DNA of 64,000 nt from a virus: positions 27,894-91,893 of IMG/VR virus record IMGVR_UViG_3300005573_000857. The stretch is one strand, 5' to 3'. Below the pieces are notes generated by a model, which did no database searches, was not told where the DNA came from, and worked only from the letters and a program-made list of their open reading frames with translations. Position 1 is the stretch's first letter. Each line of letters begins with the position of its first letter. Made by a program: the position numbers and the translations under genes. Of this stretch, positions 5,276-36,413 are shown piece after piece.

Positions 5276-6547
5276 ATGCTAGATGAAAAGTTGAGAGAAT
5301 GCATCGTAAAATTAATGTTTAGCAAGGACAACTCATTTTGGGGCTACATCTTTTCTAGAGTGTCACGAGTTCCAGACTCTAATTTGCCGACTGTAATGGG
5401 TGTGACAACGGTTGATTGTGAGTCATTCCAACTCATGTACAATCCGGAGCTTCTTCGTGACGCGGAAGACAACCAGATTATGCTTGTTCTCCAGCATGAG
5501 GGTGTGCATCTGCTAAACATGCATCTTCCTCGTTTGCTTCGAATCTTCGGCAAAGAAACGAACTTAGCTAAAGAGAAGCAGAATATAGCATCTGATTGGA
5601 ACATAGCTTGCGATATTTCAGCAAACGAGCTCATCGGACTGGAGCAACCATTTAAGTTTGGGCACTGCGAGATACGTCCACTAACTGCTAGTATGTTTGG
5701 TCTTCCAGAAGGAAAGACAGCGGAGTGGTACTACGAGTATATCCGCAAGAACGGAAAAAAAGTGAGTGCAGTAATGTCCTCAAGTGGTTCTGCTTCTAGG
5801 CTTGACGACCACTCTGGTTGGTGGAAGTGTACTGAAAAAGTCCCAGATGTACTAGCTGCTTCCAGGAAGCTAGAATCGTTTTCCAAACAGCTGATTGCTG
5901 AAGCAGCGAATGAGTGTAGAGGCAACTTACCGATGGGTATAAAAGAAATTATAGACGAATTGTTGTCTGTGGGGGAACTTCAATATTACGAGCTAATTCG
6001 AAAACTTGTAAAAGGGAGTCTTCTGACAAAATGGCAGAAGTGCCTCACACGGATAAATCGGAAGCGAGTCTATACGTTCGTTACAAGTAAGGAAGACTTT
6101 ATACCAGAAATTCCTCCCTTCCCTGGCAGGAAGAGAGATTTTAGCTATTATATAGGCTTGCTTCTAGATACGTCAGGGAGTATGAGTGCATCGGATATTC
6201 GCAGAGGGTTGTCTAGTATTAGAGACATTCTGGAGAACGACAGATCGTGCAAGATCACCGTTATCGAAGTTGACGCTCAAGTGCAGAAAGTCTATGACGT
6301 AAAGAAGATAGCCGACATTCAGTACGATGTAAGAGGGCGGGGTGGAACGTACCTTAGCCCAGCCCTGTGGAAGTTCAAAGAGCTGGGTGTAGATGTAGTC
6401 TTGGCGTTTACTGATGGTTATTGCGAAGACTTAAGTAACACTCCAAGAAGTGTTCTGCCGAAAAAAATTATATGGATTATCAGTAGTAACGGAAGCTGCA
6501 GAGAGATAAGTAATACAGGATTTATCTTGAGGTTGCCAGATAAGTGA
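5276..6547 (+). CDS. Metallopeptidase-vWA domain protein (DUF2201-like)
   Basis: HEGVH (HExxH) and WNIACD in the N-terminal domain; MIDAS DTSGSMS, GRGGT and FTDGY in the C-terminal domain. Confidence 0.85.
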   Translation: MLDEKLRECIVKLMFSKDNSFWGYIFSRVSRVPDSNLPTVMGVTTVDCESFQLMYNPELLRDAEDNQIMLVLQHEGVHLLNMHLPRLLRIFGKETNLAKEKQNIASDWNIACDISANELIGLEQPFKFGHCEIRPLTASMFGLPEGKTAEWYYEYIRKNGKKVSAVMSSSGSASRLDDHSGWWKCTEKVPDVLAASRKLESFSKQLIAEAANECRGNLPMGIKEIIDELLSVGELQYYELIRKLVKGSLLTKWQKCLTRINRKRVYTFVTSKEDFIPEIPPFPGRKRDFSYYIGLLLDTSGSMSASDIRRGLSSIRDILENDRSCKITVIEVDAQVQKVYDVKKIADIQYDVRGRGGTYLSPALWKFKELGVDVVLAFTDGYCEDLSNTPRSVLPKKIIWIISSNGSCREISNTGFILRLPDK

Positions 6548-6552
6548 CATAG

Positions 6553-6604
6553 AGAGAAGACTAACCACTCTAAGAGCGGTGATTAGTCTTCTCTTTCTTT
6601 TTTC
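6553..6604 (+). terminator. Rho-independent terminator
   Basis: AGAGAAGACTAA..TTAGTCTTCTCT inverted repeat followed by a T-rich tract. Confidence 0.7.
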
Positions 6605-6618
6605 GGAAAAGGGGGACC

Positions 6619-8415
6619 ATGAAAAAGTACGACGAGAAGGCTATAAAAGTTCTCGATCCAATATCTCACATTCGTCTAAATGCTGGAATGTATATTGGGG
6701 AGACTTCTAATCCAGTTCATTTAATTGAAGAGGCGCTAGATAATAGTTTAGACGAATGTCTAGCTGGCTATGCTAAGAAAGTAGCTGTCAATATTGATAC
6801 GAAAGAAAATGTATATACAGTAATGGACGATGGGAGAGGAATTCCAATCCATAACAATGTTCCGGAAATTGTATCTACAGAACTTTTTTCCGGAGCTAAG
6901 TTTAAAGATTCTAAAGATGCATATACGATATGTTCGGGTTTGCATGGAGTTGGCTTAGTAGCGATTAACGCTCTAAGTGAACAATATACTGTAGAAATTT
7001 ATAGAGACCAAAAACATGCTATCTTCGAATTTGAGAATTCTAAACTAAAAAACAGAAAGATTGAAGACTATAATGGAAGACAACCTTTTTCTACTAAAAT
7101 TGCTTTCAAGCCAGACAGAACGATCTTTGAAAAGCTCATGCCAGATGTGGACCGAATTCGAAGACGGCTACTCGTAGCTTCTGTTGAGTTGAGTGAAGTT
7201 ACTTTCGTACTAGCAGTAGACAATAAAAAAGAAGTTATAAAGCTTTCTCTCGAAGACTTCTTTAAGAATTATTGTATGTCTGAGAACGACCAGCTTATAG
7301 TTCCACTTGTTTCTTTGTCCGCTAAAAAGGGAATTGAAAGTCTAAGAGTTTCTTTTTCCTACTCTAGTACTGGTCCATCCCCAAAGATTCTCTCTTCTGT
7401 AAACTTGCTACCAGTAGAAGGAGGCGGAACTCATGTAACTTGCTTCTTAGACGTCTTGAAGACAGCTTTTTCTTCGAGAGGCAAGAAACTTAACCTGAAG
7501 TTCCAGCCGAATGACTGTGTAGCTGGACTAAGGTGTTATATAAGTTTAGAGTTAGAGAAACCTGAGTTCGTTGGGCAAACGAAAGACCGGCTAGTTAATA
7601 GTCCGACCCATTTAGAAGACCTTTTTAAGAAGATTTCTCAAGAGCTAGAAAACTACCTTTCCGAACACCAAGATCAAGTTGAAGCTTTGCTAAATTTCTT
7701 CGAGGACTATAGGTCACGGCTGGATCTAAGGAAGCTCAAGATTAGTGGTAGGACGACGTCAAGAGCTGCTACTAAATTGACGAAGTTAAGAGACTGTTCT
7801 TCAAGAAACGGAGAACTCTTTATTGTAGAAGGAGATTCCGCCGAGAGTACTTTACTCCAGTGTAGAGATCCGAAAAGACACGCGATTTTGCCTCTTAGAG
7901 GCAAGATAGCTTCTGCAGTAAACGTGAAAGACATTTTGGAAAACACTGAAGTTAAAGAGATAATTACTGCTTTGGGAATCGGTGTTTACCCTAATATAAA
8001 CATGTCTAATTTGCGTTACGATAAAGTCATTATTATGACTGACGCTGACCCTGACGGAGGACATATCGCGTGTTTGGTTATAATGAATCTGGCAATACTA
8101 GTCCCAGACTTAGTGAAGGCTGGCAAAGTTTATGTTTGTCAGACTCCACTTTATGCGATAAGTGACCCGAAAAAGAAGATTTTCATTCCGCTTTGGAGTG
8201 AGGAAGAACTGAAGAAAGCTGTTCAAGAAGGGAAACCAATTTTAAGGGCTAAGGGACTTGGTGAATTAAATCCTGACCAGCTCGAAGAGTGTGCAATTGG
8301 TCCGAGGAGAAGACTTATAAAAGTTTCTTACACGAAAGATATCAACAAGCTAATTAAGCTCTTTTCCACTGCTATTGCTAAACGGGAGCTACTGGAAGGC
8401 AAGTTCGACATCTAG
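6619..8415 (+). CDS. gyrB: Type IIA topoisomerase, GyrB/ParE-like subunit
   Basis: GMYIG, EALDNSLDE, DDGRGIP, GLHGVG (GHKL ATPase); IVEGDSA, PLRGK, IMTDADPDG (TOPRIM); KGLGE. Confidence 0.95.
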   Translation: MKKYDEKAIKVLDPISHIRLNAGMYIGETSNPVHLIEEALDNSLDECLAGYAKKVAVNIDTKENVYTVMDDGRGIPIHNNVPEIVSTELFSGAKFKDSKDAYTICSGLHGVGLVAINALSEQYTVEIYRDQKHAIFEFENSKLKNRKIEDYNGRQPFSTKIAFKPDRTIFEKLMPDVDRIRRRLLVASVELSEVTFVLAVDNKKEVIKLSLEDFFKNYCMSENDQLIVPLVSLSAKKGIESLRVSFSYSSTGPSPKILSSVNLLPVEGGGTHVTCFLDVLKTAFSSRGKKLNLKFQPNDCVAGLRCYISLELEKPEFVGQTKDRLVNSPTHLEDLFKKISQELENYLSEHQDQVEALLNFFEDYRSRLDLRKLKISGRTTSRAATKLTKLRDCSSRNGELFIVEGDSAESTLLQCRDPKRHAILPLRGKIASAVNVKDILENTEVKEIITALGIGVYPNINMSNLRYDKVIIMTDADPDGGHIACLVIMNLAILVPDLVKAGKVYVCQTPLYAISDPKKKIFIPLWSEEELKKAVQEGKPILRAKGLGELNPDQLEECAIGPRRRLIKVSYTKDINKLIKLFSTAIAKRELLEGKFDI

Positions 8416-8425
8416 AAAGGAGCGA

Positions 8426-9754
8426 ATGGTGGATAAAATAATTAAGGAACTTTACTCCAACTACGGAGACCATGTAAATAAGTATAGAATGTTTCCACTT
8501 AGCTTAGATGGATTAAGGCCGGTGGAACGTAGGGTGTTGCTTGTAGCTTACCAAGTCGCTAGAGAAAAGTTCCAAAAAGCTACAAAAGTTGACGGAACTA
8601 CTCTAGCGAACTACCATCCACATGGTTCAGTTTTTGGAACTATGTGTAGACTAGTTCACAATGGTTTTCTAGACTCCCAGGGTTCCTGGGGGTCGAACGT
8701 TGGTATTAGCCCAGCACCTCCGGCAGCTCCAAGGTATGTAGAGTGTAAGCTTTCCCAGTTAACGCAAAAGTTGTGCTTTACTTTAATAGACCACGTACCT
8801 TGGGTAGAAGCAGAAGCGGACAAAAGTTTGCAAGAACCAGTTTTTCTACCTGCTATGTTTCCTCTCTGCTTGCTAGGTAACGAGCCTGTACAAGGAATAG
8901 GCTTTGGCTATAGAACATTCATTCCTTGCTATAGGCTTCGTGATCTTTACGATCGATTAATGTATCTACTTGGTGAGAAAAAAGAAAAGCCAGTTATAAA
9001 ACCAGTTAGTGACTGTAAAGTTGTAGCTCCAACTAGTGAGTTAGAAAAGCTCTTGACTACTGGCAAAGCTACTATAGAACTGGAAGGAAAAATCGAAGTA
9101 GACAACGCCCACCATAAAGTGGTCTTAAGATCTTGGCCAAATAAGTCGTTCGAAAGTCTCATCTCTAAATTTAGGACAGAAATCAACGCCCAAGAAATCG
9201 GTTGGATTGACCTCTCTACAGACGAGACAAAAATCGTATTTGAAGTTCTAAAGCAGAGGAATAGGGAGTCTACTTTCAAGAGCTTCGTGGAGAAGCTTAA
9301 GAAAGCAATCCAAGGGCGTATTTCTTACGAAGTAATAGTAGTCGATTTTGCTAGTAACAAGCTTGTTGAAGTTGGAGTTGACGACCTTCTTTTAGCAAGT
9401 TTTACTAACTATAGCGAAATAACTAAGGTGATGCTTGAAGCACAGAAAAAGAAAGTGCAGAGCATGATTACTGAATACAAAATGTTGCAAGAGATTCGAC
9501 CCCACCTGCATAAGTACTTGAATATAACTGATGTAGATACAGTGGCTTCTAAACTTTCTCAAGACACTAGTATTCCAGTTGAGACAGTAAAGGACATGCT
9601 TTCTAGATACCGGATATCTCGCCTGTTTTCAGTTTCTCTCGATATAAAAGAACTTGACGAGAGGCTGGCCGAAATTGACAACTCCCTTTCTAACCTTAAA
9701 CAGTATGTACTGAAAGAGTACAAAGAACTTGCAGAGTTTTCTGCTACTTTGTGA
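8426..9754 (+). CDS. gyrA: Type IIA topoisomerase, GyrA/ParC-like subunit without C-terminal beta-pinwheel
   Basis: DGLRPVERR, YHPHG and catalytic AAPRY; AAGGAG RBS before ATG 8426; only ~442 aa. Confidence 0.9.
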   Translation: MVDKIIKELYSNYGDHVNKYRMFPLSLDGLRPVERRVLLVAYQVAREKFQKATKVDGTTLANYHPHGSVFGTMCRLVHNGFLDSQGSWGSNVGISPAPPAAPRYVECKLSQLTQKLCFTLIDHVPWVEAEADKSLQEPVFLPAMFPLCLLGNEPVQGIGFGYRTFIPCYRLRDLYDRLMYLLGEKKEKPVIKPVSDCKVVAPTSELEKLLTTGKATIELEGKIEVDNAHHKVVLRSWPNKSFESLISKFRTEINAQEIGWIDLSTDETKIVFEVLKQRNRESTFKSFVEKLKKAIQGRISYEVIVVDFASNKLVEVGVDDLLLASFTNYSEITKVMLEAQKKKVQSMITEYKMLQEIRPHLHKYLNITDVDTVASKLSQDTSIPVETVKDMLSRYRISRLFSVSLDIKELDERLAEIDNSLSNLKQYVLKEYKELAEFSATL

Positions 9755-19123: not shown

Positions 19124-19459
19124 ATGAAACTTAGGAGAGGTTTTGTAACCAATAGCAGTAGTACTTCGTATGTTGTCTTTGGCTTTAAGTTGCCGAAAGA
19201 GATCTGGTTTGAAGACAATGGTCCTTACTTACTTGATAACGAAGAAAAGAAGTCTCTTGGAATTCCTGAGGAACTGCAAGCTTTTTATGACAGCGGTAGG
19301 GTTTTAGTTGGTTCGTGTTTCAAAGAATATGATTCAGAAATAGAAGTTAGTGCAAAAGATCTCTTAGCGAAGACAGAAACAATAAAAGAGTGTGCTGCTA
19401 AGTTTGGTGTAGACCTAAAAGAAGTTCTCTTGTTTGCTAAATTCCACTACGACGGTTGA
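19124..19459 (+). CDS. Hypothetical protein with N-terminal MKxRxGFVTNSSS motif
   Basis: MKLRRGFVTNSSSTSY, a recurring N-terminal motif of uncharacterised phage and bacterial proteins. Confidence 0.7.
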   Translation: MKLRRGFVTNSSSTSYVVFGFKLPKEIWFEDNGPYLLDNEEKKSLGIPEELQAFYDSGRVLVGSCFKEYDSEIEVSAKDLLAKTETIKECAAKFGVDLKEVLLFAKFHYDG

Positions 19460-20499
19460 AGAGGAAGAAACTAATGGTTAGAATTGTTAATTGGCTAGTC
19501 ACTAGAAAGTGTAATCTTCAATGCTCTTACTGCAGAATTGCTAGGAGCTACGAGTCTCCGAAAGAGTATCCGAAGATAATAGACTTCTACAAGAATGAAG
19601 TTAGCCTTGACTTTATTGTAGAAGCTCTTAGACGATTTAAAAATCATAACCCAGAATGCTTCCATATCTTCTATGGTGGCGAGCCTCTATTGAGGTTAGA
19701 TTTAAAAGATATTGTTGCTTTCTGCAATAAAGAAAGCATTAACTATACCGTTATTACGAACGGGACAGAGGAGTTAGAACCATACTTGGAAGAGCTCTTA
19801 TCCACGACGAAGTTAGCTGGTCTCACAACGTCAGTCGATCCAGTAATCTTTTCACGAGAAGAAAGTGAAGACATTCTTAAGAAAAGTTTAGCTGGGTTAG
19901 AGCGTCTCTCTAAGTATAAAGAGCAAGTTGGTGATTTGGTAGCAGAGGTTACTGTTGGCAAAGACAACTTAAAGTTTCTTCATGATCTCACGAGAGAACT
20001 TACGTCTAGAAGAATCACTAGTTCGATTACTTTTATAGACATAGCGAAAAGCCCGTACTACGATTTTTCGAACATAACGGATACTTCTGTCCTTGTCTCT
20101 AAAGAAGAAGCTCTTCCTGTCTTGAACGCTATAGATGATGACGATGATGTAGACGTCCACATGAAGCATACACTTTTACCCAAGCTATACCAAGCTCTTC
20201 CGTCTAACTTAGATTGTAAGATAGAGGAAAGCGTACATAACCTGACTATTGACAGTGACGGAACAGTGAGACTTTGCTTAAGAATTCGTGGGGTAAAGAC
20301 ACCAGAGAAGACGATTCTACAATACTTAAATAGTGACGGGTCAATTGGTGACGAACTAAAAGAAAGATTGGCAGAAGACAAGAGAAGCTACTGTAAGCTT
20401 TGCAATTGGACTTGCCCGATCATGAGTTCTCTTGTCGAATGTGGAAGTAGTGATGTAAAATATCTTATCCATTCTGAAAGGAGAGACCAATGGGTATAA
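19456..20499 (+). CDS. Radical SAM protein with C-terminal Cys cluster
   Basis: CNLQCSYC (CxxxCxxC), GGEPL and TNG; C-terminal DGTVRLC and CKLCNWTC. Confidence 0.9.
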   Translation: MKRKKLMVRIVNWLVTRKCNLQCSYCRIARSYESPKEYPKIIDFYKNEVSLDFIVEALRRFKNHNPECFHIFYGGEPLLRLDLKDIVAFCNKESINYTVITNGTEELEPYLEELLSTTKLAGLTTSVDPVIFSREESEDILKKSLAGLERLSKYKEQVGDLVAEVTVGKDNLKFLHDLTRELTSRRITSSITFIDIAKSPYYDFSNITDTSVLVSKEEALPVLNAIDDDDDVDVHMKHTLLPKLYQALPSNLDCKIEESVHNLTIDSDGTVRLCLRIRGVKTPEKTILQYLNSDGSIGDELKERLAEDKRSYCKLCNWTCPIMSSLVECGSSDVKYLIHSERRDQWV

Positions 20500-20777
20500 T
20501 GGAAAAGGCTTTAACGTTCTTAAGTGCAGCAACCGAAAAAGAGGTGAAAGTTGAGTTTATAAAGAAGGATGGATCAAGAAGAGTAATGAAGTGTACTCTC
20601 GATTTTTCTAAGATTCCAGAAAAGGATAGACCAAAGTCATTTGAGCTGAAGAAGGCTCTTGAGCAGCTTAAGAAAAATAAGATTCTGCACGTCTACGACG
20701 TAGAAAACCAGGGATGGAGAAGCGTTCCTTTAGACAGAGTCACATCGTTCGTTGTCGATGGCAAAGAATCTTTGTAG
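20490..20777 (+). CDS. WYL_2 / Sm-like SH3 beta-barrel protein
   Basis: VEFIKKDGSRRVMKCTL...VYDVENQGWRSV. Confidence 0.75.
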   Translation: MGIMEKALTFLSAATEKEVKVEFIKKDGSRRVMKCTLDFSKIPEKDRPKSFELKKALEQLKKNKILHVYDVENQGWRSVPLDRVTSFVVDGKESL

Positions 20778-20786
20778 TAAGGAGGA

Positions 20787-21146
20787 ATGATGTTGACAAA
20801 GTTTATTGTTGGAACTCTTAATGTAGACCAGAGCGGAAAGACTATAACTCTTTGTAGAATTGCAAGTGAGAAGCCTGTTCTTACTATTACTAGCGATAGT
20901 TTCGAGCAAGGATCTGACAAATTTACTAGTATAAGAGTTAAAGCTAAGGAAGTAAATGTTGAGACCGAAACTGATAACGATTCGAATGCAGATGACCTTG
21001 AAAGCTTTGTTTTTGAGCTACTTACGAAAGTAGCAGTAGCGAGTAGCACTGTCGCAGATAAGAAGGAGTTCTATACTAATGTACTCGCTACTATAGAAGA
21101 TTTTCTTTCCAAGGGGGTTTGTCGTGAGAAAGGAAAAGTCGTTTGA
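20787..21146 (+). CDS. Hypothetical protein
   Basis: 119 aa; AGGAGG RBS. Confidence 0.7.
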   Translation: MMLTKFIVGTLNVDQSGKTITLCRIASEKPVLTITSDSFEQGSDKFTSIRVKAKEVNVETETDNDSNADDLESFVFELLTKVAVASSTVADKKEFYTNVLATIEDFLSKGVCREKGKVV

Positions 21147-21519
21147 CAAAATACTTAAGAAGTATGGTCAAGTAAAGACAATATTTTACTATCTTAAAGA
21201 TGATAGAACGAAAAGGCCACATACTACAGTGTGCCTACTTGTTTCGCCAGACGGGCGAATATTGTCTAGAGGAATCTCTATATGCTCTCCGCTAGATTCT
21301 TTCCGAAAGAAGACTGGAAAAGACAAAGCTCTTGGAAGAGCTATAAAGGCCCTTGTACGGAAGATATCTAGCGAACCAATTCAACCTTTCTCTCATTCAT
21401 TCTCCGGATCTGAGGAGAGAATTCGCTATCTCAAAGAAGTAGAGAAAGAATTTGGGTTCAAGTCTACGTATTTGCCAACTGCTAGATATTTTGAGGTAGG
21501 ACTGCTTCGAACTGCCTAA
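21124..21519 (+). CDS. Hypothetical phage protein with GxSxCxPxDxFxxxxGxxxAxxRA motif
   Basis: TTVCLL..RGISICSPLDSFRKKTGKDKALGRA. Confidence 0.65.
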   Translation: MRKEKSFDKILKKYGQVKTIFYYLKDDRTKRPHTTVCLLVSPDGRILSRGISICSPLDSFRKKTGKDKALGRAIKALVRKISSEPIQPFSHSFSGSEERIRYLKEVEKEFGFKSTYLPTARYFEVGLLRTA

Positions 21520-21527
21520 AACAAACT

Positions 21528-21557
21528 GGGAACTCACTAATTCGTTAGTGAGTTCCC
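21528..21557. terminator. Perfect 13-bp hairpin with TTCG loop (terminator or processing site)
   Basis: GGGAACTCACTAA-TTCG-TTAGTGAGTTCCC; no strong U-tract. Confidence 0.55.
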
Positions 21558-21599: not shown

Positions 21600-22466
21600 G
21601 TGTTCATGCAGATAGAGAAGTTAGTTCTCGTCGGCTTGGGATCTCTTGGAAGTTTTCTGTGTGAGAAATTATGCAAACTGAGAAAACTTAGGGAAATTAC
21701 TCTCATTGACTACGATATCGTAGAACGAAAAAACTTGGAGACAAGTAACTTTAAACAAAGTGACGTTGGTCTACTAAAAGTAGATGCAATGGCCAAGCTT
21801 GTAAAAGCAACTAGCAAAGAGATAAGAGTAAGAAAAATCCCAGAAAAGTTTGTCGAAGGACAAACAAAGATCCCAAAAGCCGATCTTGTATTAGACACTC
21901 GAGACTTTAACTACGATAGAGGAAAGTTAATCGATGCTCGTCTATTCCTTTCCCTACCGTATCTTGTAGTTGACTGCAGGAAAAATGTAACTTACCACAG
22001 AAAGTACGAAGGAAAGTATCCGTTGAGTATAACGAGAGAAGACATTGTCGATGCCAGTAACCATGCTTACTCTCTTATAGCTAGAGGATACTTAGACCAT
22101 CTTTTGAGAAGACAATCAGTCTATACGATAGAGATTGACAAGATTACGAAAGACTTCTTAGAAAGTTCGCATACTTCGTACGATTTTGCTTGCGATATTG
22201 ACGAAAGCAGGATTTCAAACATAGTTGCGAATATTCCAGCTGTTCTCGAAATGAACAACCAGGCAGAAGTCGTCGTTTATCTTGGAAGTAAAAAAGATCC
22301 AGTCATTTCAAGAAAGCTTCCGCAAAACTTCTTAAGAACGCCGGATGATGTTTCCTCTTGTTTTCTTTCTATGCTAAAAGGTCTTCCAGACTTTAGGAAC
22401 TACTTTGTTGTAGTTTCTAAGAAGGACTTTTGCATAGAACTCATTCCAGAAACTGCTTCCGCATAG
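21600..22466 (+). CDS. ThiF/MoeB/E1-like adenylyltransferase domain protein
   Basis: VLVGLGSLGS, TLIDYDIVE.KNL, DVG..KVDA and DLVLD..D. Confidence 0.85.
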   Translation: MFMQIEKLVLVGLGSLGSFLCEKLCKLRKLREITLIDYDIVERKNLETSNFKQSDVGLLKVDAMAKLVKATSKEIRVRKIPEKFVEGQTKIPKADLVLDTRDFNYDRGKLIDARLFLSLPYLVVDCRKNVTYHRKYEGKYPLSITREDIVDASNHAYSLIARGYLDHLLRRQSVYTIEIDKITKDFLESSHTSYDFACDIDESRISNIVANIPAVLEMNNQAEVVVYLGSKKDPVISRKLPQNFLRTPDDVSSCFLSMLKGLPDFRNYFVVVSKKDFCIELIPETASA

Positions 22467-22474
22467 AGGCGAAA

Positions 22475-22858
22475 ATGAACGTAGTCAGAAAAGAAGTAAA
22501 CATTTACCCAAGTAAAGTAAGAATTTACGGCAAGCTCTACAGTGTCGAACCGCGCAGTGAAGAAGTAAAGATAAAGAAAATTACTTTGTACCTAGATAGA
22601 GCTAACCGCTTGACGAAGGTAGTAGTGGACACCAAAGTTCACCCAAACTGCGACCCACGAACGAAAGAGTTTTGTCTTCCAGAAGAAGTTAAGAAATTAG
22701 AGTACAATGAAACTTTAGTAAAGTTGGTCGGTTCTCTTCTTTCCGTCTGGAATCTAGACAATTGTTTTGCGAAACTCCATTTCTTGAACTATTTTAACTT
22801 ATGTGAAGAGGAGGTAGTAGGTAAATGGCACTCAGAGAAGAATTTAAAGCCAAAATAA
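22475..22858 (+). CDS. Putative E2 (UBC-fold)-like protein
   Basis: VHPNCDPRTKEFCLP matches HPN-x7/8-CL; downstream LVGSLLSVWNLDN resembles the E2 helix 'IxSLLxxPN'. Confidence 0.55.
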   Translation: MNVVRKEVNIYPSKVRIYGKLYSVEPRSEEVKIKKITLYLDRANRLTKVVVDTKVHPNCDPRTKEFCLPEEVKKLEYNETLVKLVGSLLSVWNLDNCFAKLHFLNYFNLCEEEVVGKWHSEKNLKPK

Positions 22859-22992
22859 GAAACACTGTTTACGAAACAACACACCAGTTTTTCTCTAGTA
22901 TTAAGCAGGCAATTAATAATTGTATCGACATGATTGAAGAATATGTAAAAGAAAAGACCGATGAACTCTTCGGTAAGGAGGAGGAAAAATGA
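22825..22992 (+). CDS. 55-aa hypothetical protein (not in ORF track)
   Basis: GGAGG RBS; MALREEFKAKIRN...KEEEK; ATGA coupling to the next gene. Confidence 0.65.
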   Translation: MALREEFKAKIRNTVYETTHQFFSSIKQAINNCIDMIEEYVKEKTDELFGKEEEK

Positions 22993-23204
22993 GTGTTTTC
23001 GGTCAAGAAGCAGTAGAGGAAATTAAGTCTATCGTTAAATCTTGTTTCGACGAAGTGACAAAGAGTGAGAAACAAGAAGCTATTAAGTTAATAGAAGAAA
23101 AACTTAGCAAACTTGTCGCAGACGAGGTGAGTAACTACTTTAGAAAAATTTCTACATATGTTCTATATGGGGAGATTGTCAATAAATTGGAGGAAAAAAA
23201 GTAA
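22989..23204 (+). CDS. Small helical hypothetical protein
   Basis: 71 aa; GGAGG RBS; TAATG coupling to rpoC. Confidence 0.7.
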   Translation: MSVFGQEAVEEIKSIVKSCFDEVTKSEKQEAIKLIEEKLSKLVADEVSNYFRKISTYVLYGEIVNKLEEKK

Positions 23205-25903
23205 TGCCAGAACTCTTTAACATTGACGAGTTTTGCAAAGACCTACCAGAAGTGACGAGTTCGAAAATTAAAGAAAAGGGAAAGTTTAGTCCTCACGGGC
23301 TTTTTTCTGAGCAGATATTCGGTCCAGTTACTAACTACACTTGTCAGTGCGGTAAGTACTCTGGACCTTCTTCTCCAGTTGAGAAATGCGACATTTGCGG
23401 TGTCGAAATAACCTCGTCAATTGAAAGGAGAAGAAGATTCGCCAAAATAGTTCTTCCATTAAAAGTAGTAAATCCGACATTCTACAACTTAATTGCAGTT
23501 ACAGCTGGAAGAGTGAAGAGTCTATTAGACACACTAATGAAGGACGAGAAAAGCGTATTGTACAAAGAAGGAGACGAATATGTAGTAGCTCAAACTGCAC
23601 CTCCGAATGTAAAAGTATGGGAAAGATACGAAGCTATGGAAGAACTTATTAGAGGTCTGGCTACTTACACTGTAGAGAACAGTGACCCAGACGTCCCAAT
23701 CGTTAAGTCTTGGAAATTCATAAAAGACAACATTGACAAGATGTTTATTAAGAACATTATCGTCCTTCCACCAGACTTGCGACCAATCTCGAAAGCTGGT
23801 AATGACGTGCAGAAAGCTGATCGTATAAACTGGTTTTACAACTTTATTCTGGTTAAGAAAGAGAAAATGAGAGATACTATGTTCGATGTTAACCAGAATA
23901 AAGCTCTCTTTTACGCGTACTTTAAGCAGCTACAGAAGGCTGTAAACGAGCTCTTCGACCACATAATAGAGAAGTTGTCCAAGAAAGAAGGACTAGTTAG
24001 AGGGAACATCTTGGGGAAGAGGGTAGATTTCTCTGGAAGAGCAGTGATAGTTCCAAAAGTAACTCTTAACATCGACGAGTGTGGTCTTCCGTACTTTATG
24101 CTTTTGGAAATCTACAAGATGCAGATTGCCAAGCGGCTCGTTGGAACTACCGTAAAAACTCTTAATGAAGCCATAGAGTATGTAGACGAGTGTATTCGAA
24201 TGAAGAGCAAAGACCTGCTTGACGTATGTGAAGAGGTTACTAAGCATGAAGTATGTCTGCTAAATCGTCAACCTTCTTTGCACAGACTGAGTTTAGTTGG
24301 ATTTAAAATCAAAGTCTGTCTTGGTGACGTTATTTACCTCCATCCGCTAGTCTGCTCCGGTTTTAATGCAGATTTCGATGGAGACCAGATGGCTGTTTAC
24401 ATTCCCCTTTCTCCAGAAGCAAAGCAAGAGGTTCGAGAAAAGCTGATGATTACTAAGAACTTCTCGAATCCAGCAAATGCTTCTTTGTCAACTCTTCCAA
24501 ACCAGGACGTAGTCCTTGGTATCTACGCCTTAACTACAAACTCGTTCCCGAATTTAAGAAACTTGGTAGAGTGTAAGGGCAGCTTAGTTACTGAAAGCAT
24601 GGCTATCTTTAATAAGTGCTTGCCTGATGACTACCCTTTAGTAAACAAAGTCGTAACGAAGAAAGAGTTAATCGAGATACTAACAGACATAAAAGAGAAG
24701 TACGACCCGGAAACAGTGAGAGTTGTTCTTGACGAAGTAAAGGAGAAAGGGTTCAGGTACTCTACACTTTTCGGAGCTTCATTGTCGCTTCAGTCCTGTT
24801 ATGTGCCGGACCATGAAAAAGTAAGAGACGATCTTTACTCACCAAGTGATGTAAAAGAACAGATTGCGAAAGTTTCTGGAAAAGAATCTGAAACTATCTT
24901 ACGTGAGAAATTTCCCTATGCCTACATGGTTGAGTCTGGGGCTCGTGGTAGCTGGGACCAAGTTCGTCAGATCGTCTTAACAAGAGGTTTTATTTCGAAC
25001 TTCAAAGGACAAATCTTGAAGACTCCAGTAAAGAGAAGTCTTTTGGACGGACTTACTAGAGAAGAGTTCTTCTTGTCTACTTTTGGTTGCAGAAAAGGTC
25101 TTCTTGATGTTGCACTAAACACTGGAGCATCTGGCTATTTGTCAAGGAAACTAGTGTTTACTGCTGCGAACGCTCTAGTAAGTGAAACAGTTGAAGATTG
25201 TGGTACTACTGATTTACTTGAAGTTTATGTGGACTCGACTAAGAAAGCTAAGATGCTAATTGGTCGGTACTACAAAGATGCGTCTGGTAAACTCGACAAA
25301 ATTACGAAGAAAAACTACGCACAGTTTTTGGGGAAGACTATATTTATAAGGAGCCCAATTTTCTGTCGTAGTCTAGAATTCTGCCACACTTGCTACGGAG
25401 ATCTGTATAAGACTCTGCATAGCCGCTTCGTTGGTGTTATAGCTGCACAAAGCTTAGGAGAGACGAATACTCAGCTAATATTGAGAACGTTCCATACTTC
25501 AGGAGTCGCTGTAGTAAAAGGCGAAGCCTCTCTGAAGCAGAAAGATATAGTAGCAGACTTGAGTGCAGCTTCGAAACTATTACACCAGTTAGAAGGAGTT
25601 AACTATAAAGATTTAGTGCACGATTTGTTCGAAGTCTACAATACTTCTAGAGAAATTTTCTCAGTCCACATTGAAGTTATTGTCTCTGAAATGATGTGGG
25701 CTGGAAACGTTCTTTGGAGAATGGCGAAAAATAGAGACAAGATAACTCCAACGTACCATAGTGTCCAAAGCGTTCCTGCTAGACAAAGCTGGTTACTTGG
25801 TTTCGCTTTTTCTCATCCGAAGTGGAATTTGCTTAGAGGTGTGCAGTATTCTGGTGAGTACGTTGGTCCAATTGATAAGATGCTAAGAGGCGAGAGAATC
25901 TAA
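23204..25903 (+). CDS. rpoC: DNA-directed RNA polymerase beta' subunit (compact, 899 aa)
   Basis: GLFSEQIFGP, CQC..CDIC zinc site, VLPPDLRP, LGKRVDFSGRAVI, LLNRQPSLH, catalytic FNADFDGDQM, SGYLSRKL and TQLILRTFH. Confidence 0.97.
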   Translation: MPELFNIDEFCKDLPEVTSSKIKEKGKFSPHGLFSEQIFGPVTNYTCQCGKYSGPSSPVEKCDICGVEITSSIERRRRFAKIVLPLKVVNPTFYNLIAVTAGRVKSLLDTLMKDEKSVLYKEGDEYVVAQTAPPNVKVWERYEAMEELIRGLATYTVENSDPDVPIVKSWKFIKDNIDKMFIKNIIVLPPDLRPISKAGNDVQKADRINWFYNFILVKKEKMRDTMFDVNQNKALFYAYFKQLQKAVNELFDHIIEKLSKKEGLVRGNILGKRVDFSGRAVIVPKVTLNIDECGLPYFMLLEIYKMQIAKRLVGTTVKTLNEAIEYVDECIRMKSKDLLDVCEEVTKHEVCLLNRQPSLHRLSLVGFKIKVCLGDVIYLHPLVCSGFNADFDGDQMAVYIPLSPEAKQEVREKLMITKNFSNPANASLSTLPNQDVVLGIYALTTNSFPNLRNLVECKGSLVTESMAIFNKCLPDDYPLVNKVVTKKELIEILTDIKEKYDPETVRVVLDEVKEKGFRYSTLFGASLSLQSCYVPDHEKVRDDLYSPSDVKEQIAKVSGKESETILREKFPYAYMVESGARGSWDQVRQIVLTRGFISNFKGQILKTPVKRSLLDGLTREEFFLSTFGCRKGLLDVALNTGASGYLSRKLVFTAANALVSETVEDCGTTDLLEVYVDSTKKAKMLIGRYYKDASGKLDKITKKNYAQFLGKTIFIRSPIFCRSLEFCHTCYGDLYKTLHSRFVGVIAAQSLGETNTQLILRTFHTSGVAVVKGEASLKQKDIVADLSAASKLLHQLEGVNYKDLVHDLFEVYNTSREIFSVHIEVIVSEMMWAGNVLWRMAKNRDKITPTYHSVQSVPARQSWLLGFAFSHPKWNLLRGVQYSGEYVGPIDKMLRGERI

Positions 25904-25926
25904 TAACTAGAAAGGAGGTCTCTGGA

Positions 25927-28900
25927 TTGAGGATAGTAAATCCGTTTTTTCATCTTAGTGATGGGGGTATCTTCGAACTTAGAGAGAAAGACTATGCGTC
26001 AATTGAGCAGACAGTGAGAGAAATGCTAAAGCCAGCTGAAGAAGCTGGTTTCGTTATAAAAGAGTTTGAGTTGAGAGACCAGAGACCGTCTGTACGAGAA
26101 CTGATGCCAACTCTAAAGAAGAATCTGGTAATAGTACTAGAAAAGAACAACTCTGTAGTGAATTTAACTACGCAAATTCCAAAGCTTGTTGACGGAAACT
26201 ATATTGTAATTTCTGGAAGGAAGAAGGTACCCCTCTTCCAGTTGTTCGATTTGCCGATTGTTACAAGAGGTAAATCAATAAAGCTACGAACAAATGTTGC
26301 AACGTTGAGTCTAACTGTAAAGGACAAAAAAGGAGAGTCTGACCCCTTTTACGTATCTCTAAATTTCATGAACAAAGACGTTCCCTTTTCTCTCGTCCTG
26401 TTTTGCTGCTACGGATTCGATAGAGTAGTGGACATGTTTGGACTAGATAAACTCACTGAACTTCCAAGTAACTCGGGTCTTCTTGGTAAGTTGGAATGCG
26501 ATTTCTTTTCGTACTACAGTGAATCGAAAGAATACACTCAAGAAGACTTTGTGCGAGAGCTTGGAAGATACTACACTTCTTACGATGCGAAAAAGAAAGG
26601 TGAAGAAGTAGTTTACGCGCTCGATCTCATTGCGAAAGTAGACGTTCCATCCTCTAGGTTCTTTACAACGGAGTCTGCTGTCAGTGAGTTATTGCAAGCT
26701 CTAAGAATTGGTCACATTGACGATACTGACTTCAGAAATAAAAGAATACGCTGTTTCGAGTACATAGTGCTGGCTAAGCTGGCAAGAGACATTTACAACC
26801 TCTGTATCGCTAGTCGTAACGCTTTGCGCCCAAAGTTTAGTACGAACTCTAAACAAGTTATCTCAGAATGTAAGACTTCGTCAATTATCCAGTACGATCA
26901 GTCACTGAATCCGATAGATGAACTGACAAAACTTAGCAGAGTTAGCTTAGCTGGTCCAGGAGCTTTTACTAAAGAAAATGTCCCAGAGTACTTAAGAGAC
27001 GTTCATCCGTCAATGTTTGGTCGGGTGTGTTCTGTGGACACACCAGAAAGAGAGAACTGTGGTGTATTGCAAAGTCTGTTGCCAAAAGTAAAGCTAACTG
27101 AGCACATGCGGTTCGACGAAGAAGTAGAAGATAAAGCCACAGTTTCGATAGCAGTCTCGATGGTTCCATTTTTAGAGCATGACGACCAAACTAGGTTGCA
27201 GATGGCTTCATCGCAAATGAGACAGGCTGTTACTCTTCTAAAAGTAGAGAAGCCCTACATTCGTTCTGGGTGCGAAGGACTGTACACAGATTATTCGTCT
27301 TTCATAAAAAGAGCTAGAAAGAATGGAGAGATCGTATATCGCGATGAGTCGTTCTGTGTGGTAGTATATGACGACAAAGATTTCGACATCTTTAAGGTCG
27401 GATTCAGGAAAACTCAGACAGAAAATATAGACTTCCTAGTTTGTAAGCATAAAGTTGGAGATAAAGTAAAAGCTGGCGATATAGTAGTTGAAAGCTTCTT
27501 CTGCACAAACGGAGAAATAAAGATAGGAAAGAATTTGTTAACGGTTTTAGCTACATGGCATGGCTTGAATTACGAAGATGCTATTCTAATTTCAGAAGAA
27601 GTTAGAGACCGAGGTGATTTTACTTCTTTACACTTTATAGACTTATCCTTCGTCCTTCCGCCGAACAAGATACTTCTGGATTTGTCAGATGATAGCAAAG
27701 GAAAAACTTATAGACCACTTCCGACTCCTTATAGCAAGATCGTTGTAAAGAGGAAGGATAAGGTCTTTGACATGCAAAGCGATAACGAAGTGCAAGAGGA
27801 AGTAATAGAAGACTATTCAGTTGTTGCTTTAGAGAAGGGTCAGAAGTATGCGGTAGTAAAGGAGATGTATGTAGATAATGATGTAGAAAAAGTTTTCGAA
27901 GAAGAACAAGTTTATAGGACTGAGAGAGACGTAAAAATCTACTCTGTAAATATCTACGCTAACAAATGGTACGATAAAGTTCGCCCATTTGACGAGTGGG
28001 TGCAAGAAACGATAAGAATGCAACAGAAAAGAGAAAGAGATTTTCACGAAAGTCTATACAAGTTTATTCCAAGGGAAAAAGTGCAGGAGTTCATTCGAGA
28101 TAATGGATTAAACAAGTTCACTTCTCAAGGAAGCTACAGAATAAACGGAGAGCTTGTTAATGGAATGTACATAGAGATTCTTGGAGTATATGAAAAGCCG
28201 ATAAACGTAGGCGACAAAATTGGAAATCGGCATGGTAATAAGGGAGTTGTAAATATTCTCCCAAAAGAAAAAATGCCGTTACTAGAAAATGGACGGCATG
28301 CCGAAGTATGTGTAAGTCCGATGTCTACTATCTCGAGAATGAACGTAGGCCAGATCTTCGAGATGCATCTAGCGATGTCTTTACAAGACCTTAAGGCTAA
28401 GCTACTGAAAATGATAGAAGATGGAAAAAGTCAAGAAGAAATGAGAAAGTATCTTCTCGACTACATAAAGATAGTAGATGCTACGAAAGATAACTGGTTC
28501 TACAATCAGTTTGAGAGTCAGTTAGGTGTAATCGACAAGAAGTTTGTAGATGACCTTACTCTAGTGCAACCCCCGTTTGAGTCCTGTTCAAGAGAACAAG
28601 TTCTAGAAGCTTGCAAGTATACGAATACTCCACTTGAGTGTTCGATTTACGATCCAATAACGGGAGAGAAAGTTCTCAACAAAGTTGGATTTGGGTACAT
28701 GTACTTCTTCAAGATGGTCCATATTGCCGAAGACAGGTTAGCTGCTAGAGGCATCGGAACGTATTCGAAAAGAACTCTACAACCTCTTGGAGGGAGAAGG
28801 AACAGAGGTGGACAAAGAGTTGGAGAAATGGAAATGTGTTGCTTTATAGCTCACGATGCTACAGAAAACTTGTACGAAACTCTCACTACAAAGTCCGATT

Positions 28901-29064
28901 CTATCGACCTCAAGAACGAATACTTAAGAACCATTCTCGGATCGGACTTCGTTAGGAGACCCGATAAGATCGACGATGTCCCAGAGGCTGTAAAACTGCT
29001 AGACTCTTATTGCTTAGTAGTCGGTGTAAAGACGAAAAGCGATAAAAAGGAGGGTAGTGAATGA
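25927..29064 (+). CDS. rpoB: DNA-directed RNA polymerase beta subunit, copy 2
   Basis: RDVHPSMFGRVCSVDTPE, PFLEHDD..R.QMASSQMRQA, GDKIGNRHGNKG, SRMNVGQ and GGQRVGEME. Confidence 0.95.
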   Translation: MRIVNPFFHLSDGGIFELREKDYASIEQTVREMLKPAEEAGFVIKEFELRDQRPSVRELMPTLKKNLVIVLEKNNSVVNLTTQIPKLVDGNYIVISGRKKVPLFQLFDLPIVTRGKSIKLRTNVATLSLTVKDKKGESDPFYVSLNFMNKDVPFSLVLFCCYGFDRVVDMFGLDKLTELPSNSGLLGKLECDFFSYYSESKEYTQEDFVRELGRYYTSYDAKKKGEEVVYALDLIAKVDVPSSRFFTTESAVSELLQALRIGHIDDTDFRNKRIRCFEYIVLAKLARDIYNLCIASRNALRPKFSTNSKQVISECKTSSIIQYDQSLNPIDELTKLSRVSLAGPGAFTKENVPEYLRDVHPSMFGRVCSVDTPERENCGVLQSLLPKVKLTEHMRFDEEVEDKATVSIAVSMVPFLEHDDQTRLQMASSQMRQAVTLLKVEKPYIRSGCEGLYTDYSSFIKRARKNGEIVYRDESFCVVVYDDKDFDIFKVGFRKTQTENIDFLVCKHKVGDKVKAGDIVVESFFCTNGEIKIGKNLLTVLATWHGLNYEDAILISEEVRDRGDFTSLHFIDLSFVLPPNKILLDLSDDSKGKTYRPLPTPYSKIVVKRKDKVFDMQSDNEVQEEVIEDYSVVALEKGQKYAVVKEMYVDNDVEKVFEEEQVYRTERDVKIYSVNIYANKWYDKVRPFDEWVQETIRMQQKRERDFHESLYKFIPREKVQEFIRDNGLNKFTSQGSYRINGELVNGMYIEILGVYEKPINVGDKIGNRHGNKGVVNILPKEKMPLLENGRHAEVCVSPMSTISRMNVGQIFEMHLAMSLQDLKAKLLKMIEDGKSQEEMRKYLLDYIKIVDATKDNWFYNQFESQLGVIDKKFVDDLTLVQPPFESCSREQVLEACKYTNTPLECSIYDPITGEKVLNKVGFGYMYFFKMVHIAEDRLAARGIGTYSKRTLQPLGGRRNRGGQRVGEMEMCCFIAHDATENLYETLTTKSDSIDLKNEYLRTILGSDFVRRPDKIDDVPEAVKLLDSYCLVVGVKTKSDKKEGSE

Positions 29065-29912
29065 CAGAATTGCCAGATATACAGCATAATCAAGAACCAG
29101 AGCACAAGTTTTACATAAATAAGGTTGGAGTGCAAAGTGTACGCTCTCCGTTTATTCTTCAGACACGATACGGTAGTTTCCACGAATTAGTGGCAAAGAT
29201 TACAATGACTACTGATTTGGCACCTAGCATAAAGGGAATAAGTATGTCCAAACTAATAAGGACATTAAAACCTTACTTAGAGAAGCCACTTAAGCATCCT
29301 CTTATAAGAGAGATTCTACAGCGCCTCCGAGTTGAAGTTGAAACTGATTCTGCAAATAGTTCTATTAGGTTTGAGTTCCAACTCCCTGTTATAAAAGTTT
29401 CACCGATAAGCAAACACACATTTCCAGAATACTACGATTGTGCTTTCGAAGGTTCTCTTGTCGGAGAAAAGTTCCGCTTCTTCCAGAAAGTAATTGTGCA
29501 GTATGCTTCTTATTGCCCGTGCTCTGCTTCGCTATGTGAACACTTAAAGCAAAATTCGAAGCTTGGTTTTCCGCACGCACAGAGGTCGTTCGCAGAAGTT
29601 CTTGTAGAAGTCATACCGCCAGAACTCCTTTGGCTAGAGGATATTATTGACCTTGTTGAAGATGCAGTTAAAACTATACCGTACCCGATTCTTCAAAGGG
29701 TCGATGAGCAAGAGTTAGCAAGGATTGCAGCCCAGAATGCGATGTTTGTAGAGGATGCTATAAGAAGAATTATCGCCAACTTAAATTCCTGTAGCAAAAT
29801 TTACGACTGGATTGTAAAATGTTGTCACGAAGAGTCAATCCATAAGCATGAGGCGATAGCAGTGGCTTGGAAAGGAATCAATGGGGGATTCGATGACAAG
29901 AAGTTTCTTTAA
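29061..29912 (+). CDS. folE2: GTP cyclohydrolase IB (FolE2)
   Basis: LPDIQ, KGISMS, CPCS, HAQRS, R.DE, FVEDAIR and ESIH.H. Confidence 0.92.
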   Translation: MTELPDIQHNQEPEHKFYINKVGVQSVRSPFILQTRYGSFHELVAKITMTTDLAPSIKGISMSKLIRTLKPYLEKPLKHPLIREILQRLRVEVETDSANSSIRFEFQLPVIKVSPISKHTFPEYYDCAFEGSLVGEKFRFFQKVIVQYASYCPCSASLCEHLKQNSKLGFPHAQRSFAEVLVEVIPPELLWLEDIIDLVEDAVKTIPYPILQRVDEQELARIAAQNAMFVEDAIRRIIANLNSCSKIYDWIVKCCHEESIHKHEAIAVAWKGINGGFDDKKFL

Positions 29913-35129: not shown

Positions 35130-36413
35130 TTAGTAACAGGCTGACAAAGAGCTTTCTAATTTCTCGATTGCTTCGTCTACTTCTTGTTCTTTTAAAATAA
35201 GTGGCGGGCAAAACCTGATTGAAGATTGGCCGCAGGGGAGAGCTAATAAGCCGTTTCGGAAGCACTTTTCGATAATAAGACTTCTTTCCGCTCCAGCTGG
35301 CTCTTTTCGAGTGCGGTCTCTTACAATTTCAATTGCAACCATTAAACCTTTTCCTCTAACATCACCAATCACTTCAAACTTCTCAGCTAGTTGCTTTAGC
35401 TTTGCAATTAGATAATTCCCAACTCTTTCGACGTTTTCGAGTAATTCTTGTACAACTTCTATTGTGGCAAGAGCAGCAGCACACGAAACTGGGTTACCAC
35501 CGAACGTGCTACCGTGAGAACCAGCACTCCAGTCAGTTACTAGCGAGTCTTTTGCTACCATAGCTCCTAGTGGAAGACCAGACGCTATTCCTTTTGCTAG
35601 TGTGAAGATATCTGGATCTACGTGGAAATGTTCACACGCAAACATTTTACCTGTTCTTCCAAACCCAGTTTGGACTTCGTCAGCTATAAATAAGATGTCA
35701 TTCTCTTTGCATAAGTTGTAGAGCTTTGGCAGATAGTCGTCAGGAGGAACTACATATCCTCCTTCTCCAAGAATTGGCTCTATAAAAACGGCTGCTACTT
35801 CTTCTGCAGGAACTGCTTTTTCTAGTACTTCTCTAATGAAAGAAAGGCATTGCATACCGCAAGAGGGGTACTCTAACTTAAAGAAACATCTATAACAATA
35901 AGGATAAGGAACGAATACTGTTGGTAAGAGACTACCATAACCTTTTTTGTTCGAGCTTTTATTTGACGTAATAGATAGAGAACCGAATGTTCGACCATGA
36001 AAAGAACCTATAAAAGAGATGAAGAAGTTCTTTCTTGTAGAAAAGCGGGCTAGCTTCATTGCTGCTTCGTTTGCTTCTGCGCCAGAATTACAAAGAAAAG
36101 CTTTTCTATCTTTAGAACCTGGAGAGAGCTGGACTAACTTTTGGCATAGGTCAATCGCTTTTTCGTAGTAGAAGTCAGCAAAACACATATGCAGGAACTT
36201 TTCTGCTTGTTCCTTTATAGCAGAGACTATTTTTGGATGACAGTGTCCGGTATTGCAAGTTGCTATACCAGAAGTGAAATCTAAATACTCTTTATTGTCT
36301 ATATCGTATATTCGAACACCGTTACCTCTACTGACAACGAGAGGATATACTCTACCATAGCAGGGAGCCACGAATTTCCAGTTTCTCTGGAGAATATCTT
36401 CTACTTTGGACAT
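35130..36413 (-). CDS. Class III PLP aminotransferase (4-aminobutyrate/acetylornithine family)
   Basis: YLDFTSGIA, NSGAEANEAA, FHGRT, EPILGEGG, DEVQTGFGRTG, LAKG and STFGGNP. Confidence 0.95.
   Translation of the reverse strand: MSKVEDILQRNWKFVAPCYGRVYPLVVSRGNGVRIYDIDNKEYLDFTSGIATCNTGHCHPKIVSAIKEQAEKFLHMCFADFYYEKAIDLCQKLVQLSPGSKDRKAFLCNSGAEANEAAMKLARFSTRKNFFISFIGSFHGRTFGSLSITSNKSSNKKGYGSLLPTVFVPYPYCYRCFFKLEYPSCGMQCLSFIREVLEKAVPAEEVAAVFIEPILGEGGYVVPPDDYLPKLYNLCKENDILFIADEVQTGFGRTGKMFACEHFHVDPDIFTLAKGIASGLPLGAMVAKDSLVTDWSAGSHGSTFGGNPVSCAAALATIEVVQELLENVERVGNYLIAKLKQLAEKFEVIGDVRGKGLMVAIEIVRDRTRKEPAGAERSLIIEKCFRNGLLALPCGQSSIRFCPPLILKEQEVDEAIEKLESSLSACY

Follow-up and report, generated by a model that had tools for sequence, protein, structure and literature searches.

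Two adjacent genes in a 64,000-nucleotide stretch of viral DNA (positions 27,894 to 91,893 of the IMG/VR record IMGVR_UViG_3300005573_000857; hereafter, the window) probably encode a working, phage-specific E1–E2 thioester relay. The upstream gene encodes an E1-like adenylating enzyme, and the downstream gene a minimal E2-like protein. The original prediction, made from the letters of the DNA, had interpreted these open reading frames (ORFs) as a ubiquitin-type conjugation pair, and this interpretation is supported by the fold of the E1, by the motif and the structural model of the E2, and by the conserved pairing of the two genes. The ORFs have not arisen by chance, because there are 52 full-length homologues of the E1 (31–38% identity) and 347 cluster representatives of the E2, with invariant motif residues in both families. 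Coordinates are collected in Table 1, and residue numbers of the E1 follow the 288-aa reading throughout.

The E1 gene has two candidate starts. GTG 21600 falls within the GGAGAGG ribosome-binding site; ATG 21606 is 7 nt past that site. As the GTG is inside the ribosome-binding site, ATG 21606 is likely to be the true start, yielding a protein of 286 aa. The elements that had suggested a ThiF/E1 domain (GLGSLGS, DYDIVERKNL, and DVGLLK) are all present, and the Pfam ThiF model matches the ORF with 53.5 bits at a cut-off of 28.1 (E 2.5e-14), covering residues 7–103 only. In the alignment of 30 homologous sequences, all members share G12, G14, G17, D37, D39, K60, and D99, and at least 90% have D102; N45, R101, and C126 are also among the invariant or near-invariant residues of the core. 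From MoeB and ThiF, we take these motifs to be the nucleotide-binding GxGxxG, the D-x-D contact with ribose, the conserved lysine, and the acidic magnesium site.

A profile of the 30 homologues, compared with PDB, retrieves MccB, MoeB, PaaA, ThiF, TcdA, Cap2, and UBA5 with E-values from 2e-11 to 3e-8. The AlphaFold2 (AF2) model of the E1 has a predicted local distance difference test score (pLDDT) of 84, and Foldseek matches it to E1 adenylation domains at 4e-9 to 3e-7. In VIA-align, the whole E1 domains of Cap2 (372–600), MoeB (25–248), and ThiF (17–244) fit residues 1–186/209 of the model; therefore the E1 fold is complete by residue ~200. As far as a prediction can show it, the adenylation fold of the E1 is complete and its nucleotide site is intact.

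As also predicted, the protein has no CxxC pairs, that is, no zinc sites, and lacks the arginine of the canonical (S)NLxRQ motif, which reads KNLETS in the window and KNLxNS in the family consensus. Judging from the alignment, arginine or lysine at position 52 and the invariant R101 might act as substitutes. C126 (in VDCRKN) is at least 90% conserved and directly follows strand beta6; it may be the counterpart of C548 of Cap2 or of the cysteine of ATG7.

Beyond the adenylation fold, a disordered linker leads to an additional, confidently modelled domain of ~85 residues, comprising helix 208–221, strands 224–229 and 234–240, helix 248–258, and strands 268–273 and 278–283. In the model of the full-length E1, the order of elements over residues 224–283 (beta-beta-alpha-beta-beta) fits a beta-grasp, and the domain, which itself has no profile match, is a candidate for a fused ubiquitin-like (Ubl) module or a module resembling the ubiquitin-fold domain (UFD) of other E1s. 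No PDB chain was matched by it in a sequence profile search, and a look-up of this part in the ESM Atlas, where the model is poor, gave no usable feature match. The domain ends in the tail IELIPETASA, in which the original prediction had seen the end of a ThiS- or MoaD-like protein without Gly-Gly. The tail is indeed there, and it is conserved across 79 relatives: the end point is fixed, the terminal alanine is present in all but two, and glycine at position -3 is nearly invariant. The last nine residues are the best conserved stretch of the whole C-terminal domain; the window protein ends in ETASA. The Gly-Gly or Gly ending of ubiquitin-like modifiers is absent, as the family ends in G-[AGS]-A, and the window protein in ASA.

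The second ORF begins at ATG 22475, as had been proposed. Its E2-type signature, likewise proposed, reads H56-P57-N58-CDPRTKEF-C67-LP in the window, and the SLLSVWNLD segment is present. Mean column identity in the alignment of 61 homologues is just 20%; still, all sequences share P12, H56, P57, and C67, and at least 90% have N58 and P69. The family motif, HPNxxPxTGEFC[IL]P, is kept in divergent members despite loop insertions. An HPN located ~8 residues before the cysteine is a canonical feature of E2s that is absent from the E2 domain of Cap2 (Cap2 preprint). UBE2U, in HPNVDPHTGQPC, and Pex4p share the HPN-x8-C spacing of the phage protein.

The E2 ORF belongs to no Pfam or PHROG family, and a word-based protein search returned the window E2 alone. 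Homologues surfaced among the genes downstream of E1 homologues (phmmer E-values from 1e-17 to 5e-5 in 69 loci), and an exhaustive profile search yielded the 347 cluster representatives at E<=1e-3, with 212 at E<=1e-10. The UQ_con and Prok-E2 models of Pfam gave no significant match: UQ_con reaches three of the 61 members, with the best E-value of 0.055. The E2 profile itself reaches only four PDB chains, including Pex4p and UBE2U, which are aligned exactly at the motif, albeit weakly (E 0.2–0.7).

The AF2 model of the E2 (pLDDT 87) consists of a beta-meander with strands in residues 2–51, the HPN loop, Cys67, and a helix at 79–89. In a Foldseek search against PDB, about 40 of the top 50 matches are E2 or ubiquitin E2 variant (UEV) proteins, none of them at E<=1e-3, and the VIA ranking has E2 and UEV proteins at the top as well. 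BFVD returned nothing significant, with the best template-modelling (TM) scores belonging to E2s of giant viruses. The UBC fold that had been expected for this ORF is thus borne out by the model and by the rankings, at low scores. The model opens with a strand at residue 2 and has no helix alpha1 and no alpha3 or alpha4, only short elements past alpha2, and structural alignments start at residue ~30 of canonical E2s. At the level of the model, gene 2 is shown to be a minimal UBC-type core with a four-stranded beta-meander, a cysteine loop, and helix alpha2. We call it an E2 because the ranking, the motif, its spacing, and the adjacent E1 combine; the structural scores alone are low. Some members of the family contain tandem duplications (P0062 and P0149, also P0118 and P0159). 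In P0062 and P0149, the first copy has HPN without the cysteine and the second is intact, which recalls UEV–E2 pairs such as Mms2–Ubc13.

Table 1. Features of the E1–E2 locus in the window, and proteins of the additional block found in related loci (locus coordinates where available).
Feature	Position	Strand	Remarks
E1-like adenylating enzyme (ThiF/MoeB/Cap2-type)	21606..22466	+	286 aa from ATG 21606; 288 aa from GTG 21600
E1 adenylation (Rossmann) domain, residues 1–~200	21606..22199	+	G12xG14xxG17, D37xD39, N45, K60, LD99-x-R101-D102, C126
E1 disordered linker, residues 182–201	22143..22202	+	pLDDT <50; indel-rich, length varies among homologues
E1 extra C-terminal alpha/beta domain, residues ~205–283	22212..22448	+	DSSP of AF2 model; outside every E1 structural alignment
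E1 free C-terminal tail IELIPETASA	22434..22463	+	family consensus [IV]EL[IL][PE]ETG[AGS]A-COOH
Minimal E2-like (UBC-fold) protein, 127 aa	22475..22858	+	ATG 22475, 8 nt past the E1 TAG stop, preceded by a GAGG site
E2 catalytic motif H56-P57-N58-x8-C67	22640..22675	+	alignment of 61 sequences
Perfect 13-bp hairpin	21528..21557		between the 131-aa gene and E1; minimum free energy -25 kcal/mol, z -2.96
Two small helical ORFs, 55 aa and 71 aa	22825-22992, 22989-23204	+	between E2 and RNA polymerase beta'
RNA polymerase beta' and beta	23204..29064	+	beta' 23204-25903, beta 25927-29064; conserved downstream partners of the E1–E2 pair
Relatives: ~125-aa protein			
Relatives: ~850-aa protein			weak Prok-E2_D/PRTRC_B match (Prok-E2_D 1.3e-4)
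Relatives: JAB protein			Prok-JAB 7e-6, PRTRC_A 1.5e-13
Relatives: 227-aa ThiF			2e-19; PRTRC_ThiF 5e-9
Relatives: ~160-aa protein	L010:6782-7282		72 loci; Rho_N/SAP-like N-terminus, C-terminus GDxLEFLKPAG[KR]KG

To describe the distribution of the pair, we used 80 IMG/VR loci seeded with the E1 and 80 more seeded with the beta' subunit of RNA polymerase (RNAP; 51–58% identity), the latter taken from 297 beta'-encoding stretches; 72 of these 80 have enough upstream DNA. The order common to the E1-seeded loci is radical SAM – WYL_2 – … – 131-aa gene – E1 – E2 – two small ORFs – beta' – beta – FolE2. The order E1-E2-beta'-beta is found in 79 of the 80, and by profile a homologue of the E2 directly follows the E1 in 76, so that the pair is syntenic in related phages, as the original prediction would have it. 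Among the 72 informative beta'-seeded loci, the E1 is present in all and the E2 in 70. Three E1-seeded loci have no adjacent mini-E2; the E1 tail is kept there. Searching 50,697 deposited phage genomes with the E1 and E2 by tblastn produced no match, and the E1 alignment, run against 185,579 prokaryote species at one genome per species, produced only generic matches to the N-terminal ThiF part. The E1–E2 pair belongs to the core of a single clade of uncultured phages, since it is kept in relatives, absent from deposited phages, and has only generic matches in prokaryotes. We found no description of the cassette in the literature searched, of which the coverage was partial, and an earlier description is possible.

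Most relatives carry another system of this type. In 65–72 of the 80 relatives, ~5.5 kb between WYL_2 and the 131-aa gene (e.g., L010:1431-7282 and L005:2471-7910) encode the five proteins listed at the end of Table 1, and this block lies 1–2 kb upstream of the mini pair in most of them. Its ~160-aa protein, which sometimes has one extra residue (Cys) past KPAG[KR]KG, resembles a free modifier of the ubiquitin-like kind whose head would bind nucleic acid. By its sequence matches, the block is a complete set of Ubl, E1, E2, and JAB of the PRTRC type (ParB-related, ThiF-related), with all scores below the curated cut-offs. A PDB profile search with the tail domain of the Ubl-like protein was empty, and hhalign found no similarity between this domain and the C-terminal domain of the mini-pair E1. 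The mini-E2 and the E2_D-like region of the large protein show a weak hhalign pairing (E 0.016, probability 2.9%), a hint only, in which N-x7-C and FNxD of the latter fall on HPN-x8-C and FNLD of the former.

The relatives thus hold two sets, so that each E1/E2 pair there can have its own modifier. In the window, the PRTRC-like block is absent from the syntenic place, and neither the individual proteins nor profiles of the Ubl tail and of the N-terminus of the large E2, used as queries, found it elsewhere on the contig. In particular, the Ubl-tail profile has no match on the window contig, and a single ORF there, an unrelated one, has a GG end. The mini pair of this phage is retained, with neither a free Ubl nor a JAB found on the contig.

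Several steps can be proposed for the relay. The E1, probably a homodimer like MoeB, ThiF, and Cap2, would adenylate a C-terminal carboxylate with ATP; the acyl group would then move to Cys67 of the E2, possibly through the near-invariant Cys126 of the E1, and the E2 would ligate it to an amine of the target, probably that of a lysine. The most likely C-terminus to be activated is the E1's own tail, so that the E1 would be enzyme and modifier at once, a proposal that we hold more tentatively than the relay itself. The flexible linker of ~20 residues would let the tail extend into an active site, most plausibly the one in the other subunit of the dimer. We favor the E1's own tail because the domain that bears it is an addition to the E1 fold, because the linker is long enough for it to reach the active site, because its extreme end consists of conserved small residues, because no other modifier is encoded on the contig, and because Cap2, which conjugates an enzyme, the CD-NTase, by its C-terminus (Cap2 preprint), provides a precedent. 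Such activation would parallel CBASS, with its Cap2 and CD-NTase C-terminus, and tails of the MoaD and ThiS type. The predicted complex of the E1 and E2 had an ipSAE of 0.00, which we counted neither for nor against pairing.

As to the targets, the phage RNAP, host transcription proteins, and the small lysine-rich proteins encoded next to the pair are only candidates. The position of the pair beside the RNAP genes is no proof of RNAP as the target; a gene order common to the clade and joint expression may account for it. The scenario in full, that is, a self-contained two-protein system where the E1 is the modifier and is ligated onto the phage RNAP, the lysine-rich accessory proteins, or the host RNAP, thereby controlling the transcription programme of the clade, is speculative and, taken as a whole, unlikely to be right in every part.

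The main rival to self-activation is a true E1–E2 pair that acts on a separate modifier, either a host Ubl of the ThiS, MoaD, or Bil type or an unrecognized small phage protein, with the C-terminal domain of the E1 being a UFD-like module for docking or regulating the E2. Canonical E1s have a C-terminal ubiquitin-fold domain that recruits the E2 (Cap2 preprint), and the extra domain of the phage E1 comes in the same order, past the adenylation domain. Moreover, relatives encode nearby the free Ubl-like protein ending in KPAG[KR]KG, and three of them retain the E1 without an adjacent mini-E2. However, a UFD needs no fixed and conserved free C-terminus, yet here the last nine residues are the best conserved of the domain. 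The free Ubl of the relatives is accompanied by a ThiF, an E2, and a JAB of its own, and the window contig has none by the profile search, its only ORF ending in GG being unrelated. We consider a separate modifier improbable, though clearly less so than the explanations that follow.

Other explanations give the pair a different role altogether. It could be a counter-defence device that mimics host Bil, Bub, or CBASS Cap2/Cap3, mis-activating and diverting the modifier or the CD-NTase C-terminus or serving as a decoy, which would make the ubiquitin-like immunity of the host fail. The matches to such host Ubl machinery are, however, generic to the ThiF Rossmann core (residues 4–98). Anti-defence genes are usually distributed patchily, and the pair is a fixed-position core set packed together with RNAP in every relative, leaving counter-defence with a small probability. 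Slightly less probable still is that no protein is tagged: the ThiF-type enzyme would have a peptide or non-protein substrate to adenylate, as in nucleoside cyclisation (TcdA type), sulfur transfer (ThiF/MoeB type), or peptide modification (MccB/PaaA type), and the 127-aa protein would be a cysteine carrier. The best sequence matches of the E1 are indeed MccB, MoeB, PaaA, ThiF, and TcdA, and the carrier might feed nucleic-acid modification by the conserved radical SAM, WYL_2, and FolE2 neighbors. Yet none of those pathways has a UBC-fold partner with HPN and cysteine, the modification genes are separated from the pair by others, including the ~5.5 kb in relatives, and the conserved protein tail would be left without a role. 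Finally, the ...G-A-A end might be a proteolysis tag that limits the lifetime of the E1. The ssrA tag, recognized by ClpXP, ends in ...LAA, and the terminal Ala-Ala or Ser-Ala of the E1, with its free carboxylate, is nearly invariant. But the residue before the last two is glycine and not leucine, the conservation spans nine residues (ELIPETGAA) with a MoaD-like hydrophobic-Pro-x-Thr-Gly pattern, and the tail is borne by an E1, an enzyme type for which termini of this very kind are the substrate; this is the least probable explanation, and we give it very little weight.

The pair also differs from the known systems that it resembles. Cap2 of type II CBASS is an E1–E2 fusion acting on the C-terminus of the CD-NTase and belongs to a host defence island. 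By contrast, the genes described here are separate and phage-encoded, HPN is present in the E2, unlike in that of Cap2, and the proposed substrate tail is the E1's own. Neither a CD-NTase, nor an effector, nor Cap3/JAB was found on the window contig (for CD-NTase and JAB, the gene neighborhood was checked), and the layout is thus not that of type II CBASS. The Bil (BilABCD) and Bub operons have a free Ubl and a JAB or deubiquitinase gene, of which the window contig has neither; matches to their proteins are confined to generic cores, and the setting here is a phage RNAP operon. The sole match to BilD is weak (1e-4), and the four-gene layout of Bil is absent. PRTRC-type cassettes, with Prok-E2_D, JAB, ThiF, and Ubl, occur in most relatives, but the mini pair is distinct from them and smaller. 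Unlike MoeB–MoaD and ThiF–ThiS, the phage E1 has no CxxC zinc sites, no NLxRQ arginine, and no Gly-Gly, and the sulfur-carrier systems have no E2 partner. Similar to the eukaryotic UBE2U, UbcH7, and Ubc13, which are the best fold matches, the phage E2 has the beta-meander, the HPN loop, the cysteine nine residues past the asparagine, and then a helix. Unlike them, it is ~40 residues shorter, lacks alpha1 and the C-terminal helices, and has a motif of its own, NLDDCY-FTPW.

The pair may be expressed together with the RNAP genes. The hairpin upstream of the E1 sets the E1–E2–RNAP gene run apart from the preceding gene. It has no T-run on the plus strand and a T-rich tail on the minus strand only, and may mark the boundary of an operon or a site of processing. 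The starts of the 55-aa ORF, the 71-aa ORF, and beta' each overlap the preceding stop, and from this arrangement translation looks coupled from the E2 through the small ORFs to beta'. Two small lysine-rich ORFs lie between the E2 and beta' in most relatives, and the 71-aa ORF fits the profile of the second family (E 3e-7); these proteins could be accessory subunits of the RNAP or targets of conjugation. The 131-aa gene (21124-21519) has homologues of ~170–200 aa at the same position in at least 30 relatives and matches only PHROGs of unknown function; it might be a part of the E1–E2 module. The radical SAM and WYL_2 genes (19456-20777) are conserved neighbors, like FolE2, in 38–58 of the 80 relatives. 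FolE2 itself (GTP cyclohydrolase IB, E 1.4e-62; 29061-29912) starts in overlap with the stop of beta. Together, these three genes hint that the gene run also encodes a pathway for modifying nucleic acids.

The contig is 91,893 bp long; we looked for a terminal repeat and found none. Its sequence is present in hot-spring and sediment metagenomes, and none of the sequencing runs listed as carrying it is of RNA. The beta' and beta genes downstream of the pair, identified by their Pfam Rpb1 and Rpb2 domains, are the second multisubunit RNAP gene set of the phage, with 899 aa and 1045 aa, respectively, and one gene apiece. A further RNAP beta-like gene is located at 2-2209 of the window, making two multisubunit RNAP sets in one phage contig of ~92 kb. 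Other cargo (5276-9754, and 35133-36413 on the minus strand) includes a DUF2201 VWA-like/metallopeptidase protein, gyrase B- and A-like topoisomerase subunits, and a class-III aminotransferase (E 2.8e-128).

In prokaryotes, ubiquitin-type conjugation is known mainly as host immunity against phages (CBASS Cap2, Bil, and Bub), and here the same chemistry is predicted on the side of the virus. The pair, pared down to two small proteins, belongs to the fixed-position core genes of a large clade of uncultured phages, represented in IMG/VR by the 297 beta'-encoding stretches on contigs of up to 312 kb. Two parallel Ubl systems in most relatives raise the question of the division of labour between them. 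The eukaryote-type HPN-Cys site on a core of ~110 residues bears on the evolution of the UBC fold. If active, the pair would be among the smallest known E1–E2 systems and easy to reconstitute, and would show that these phages tag proteins either to run their own programme or to act against the host.
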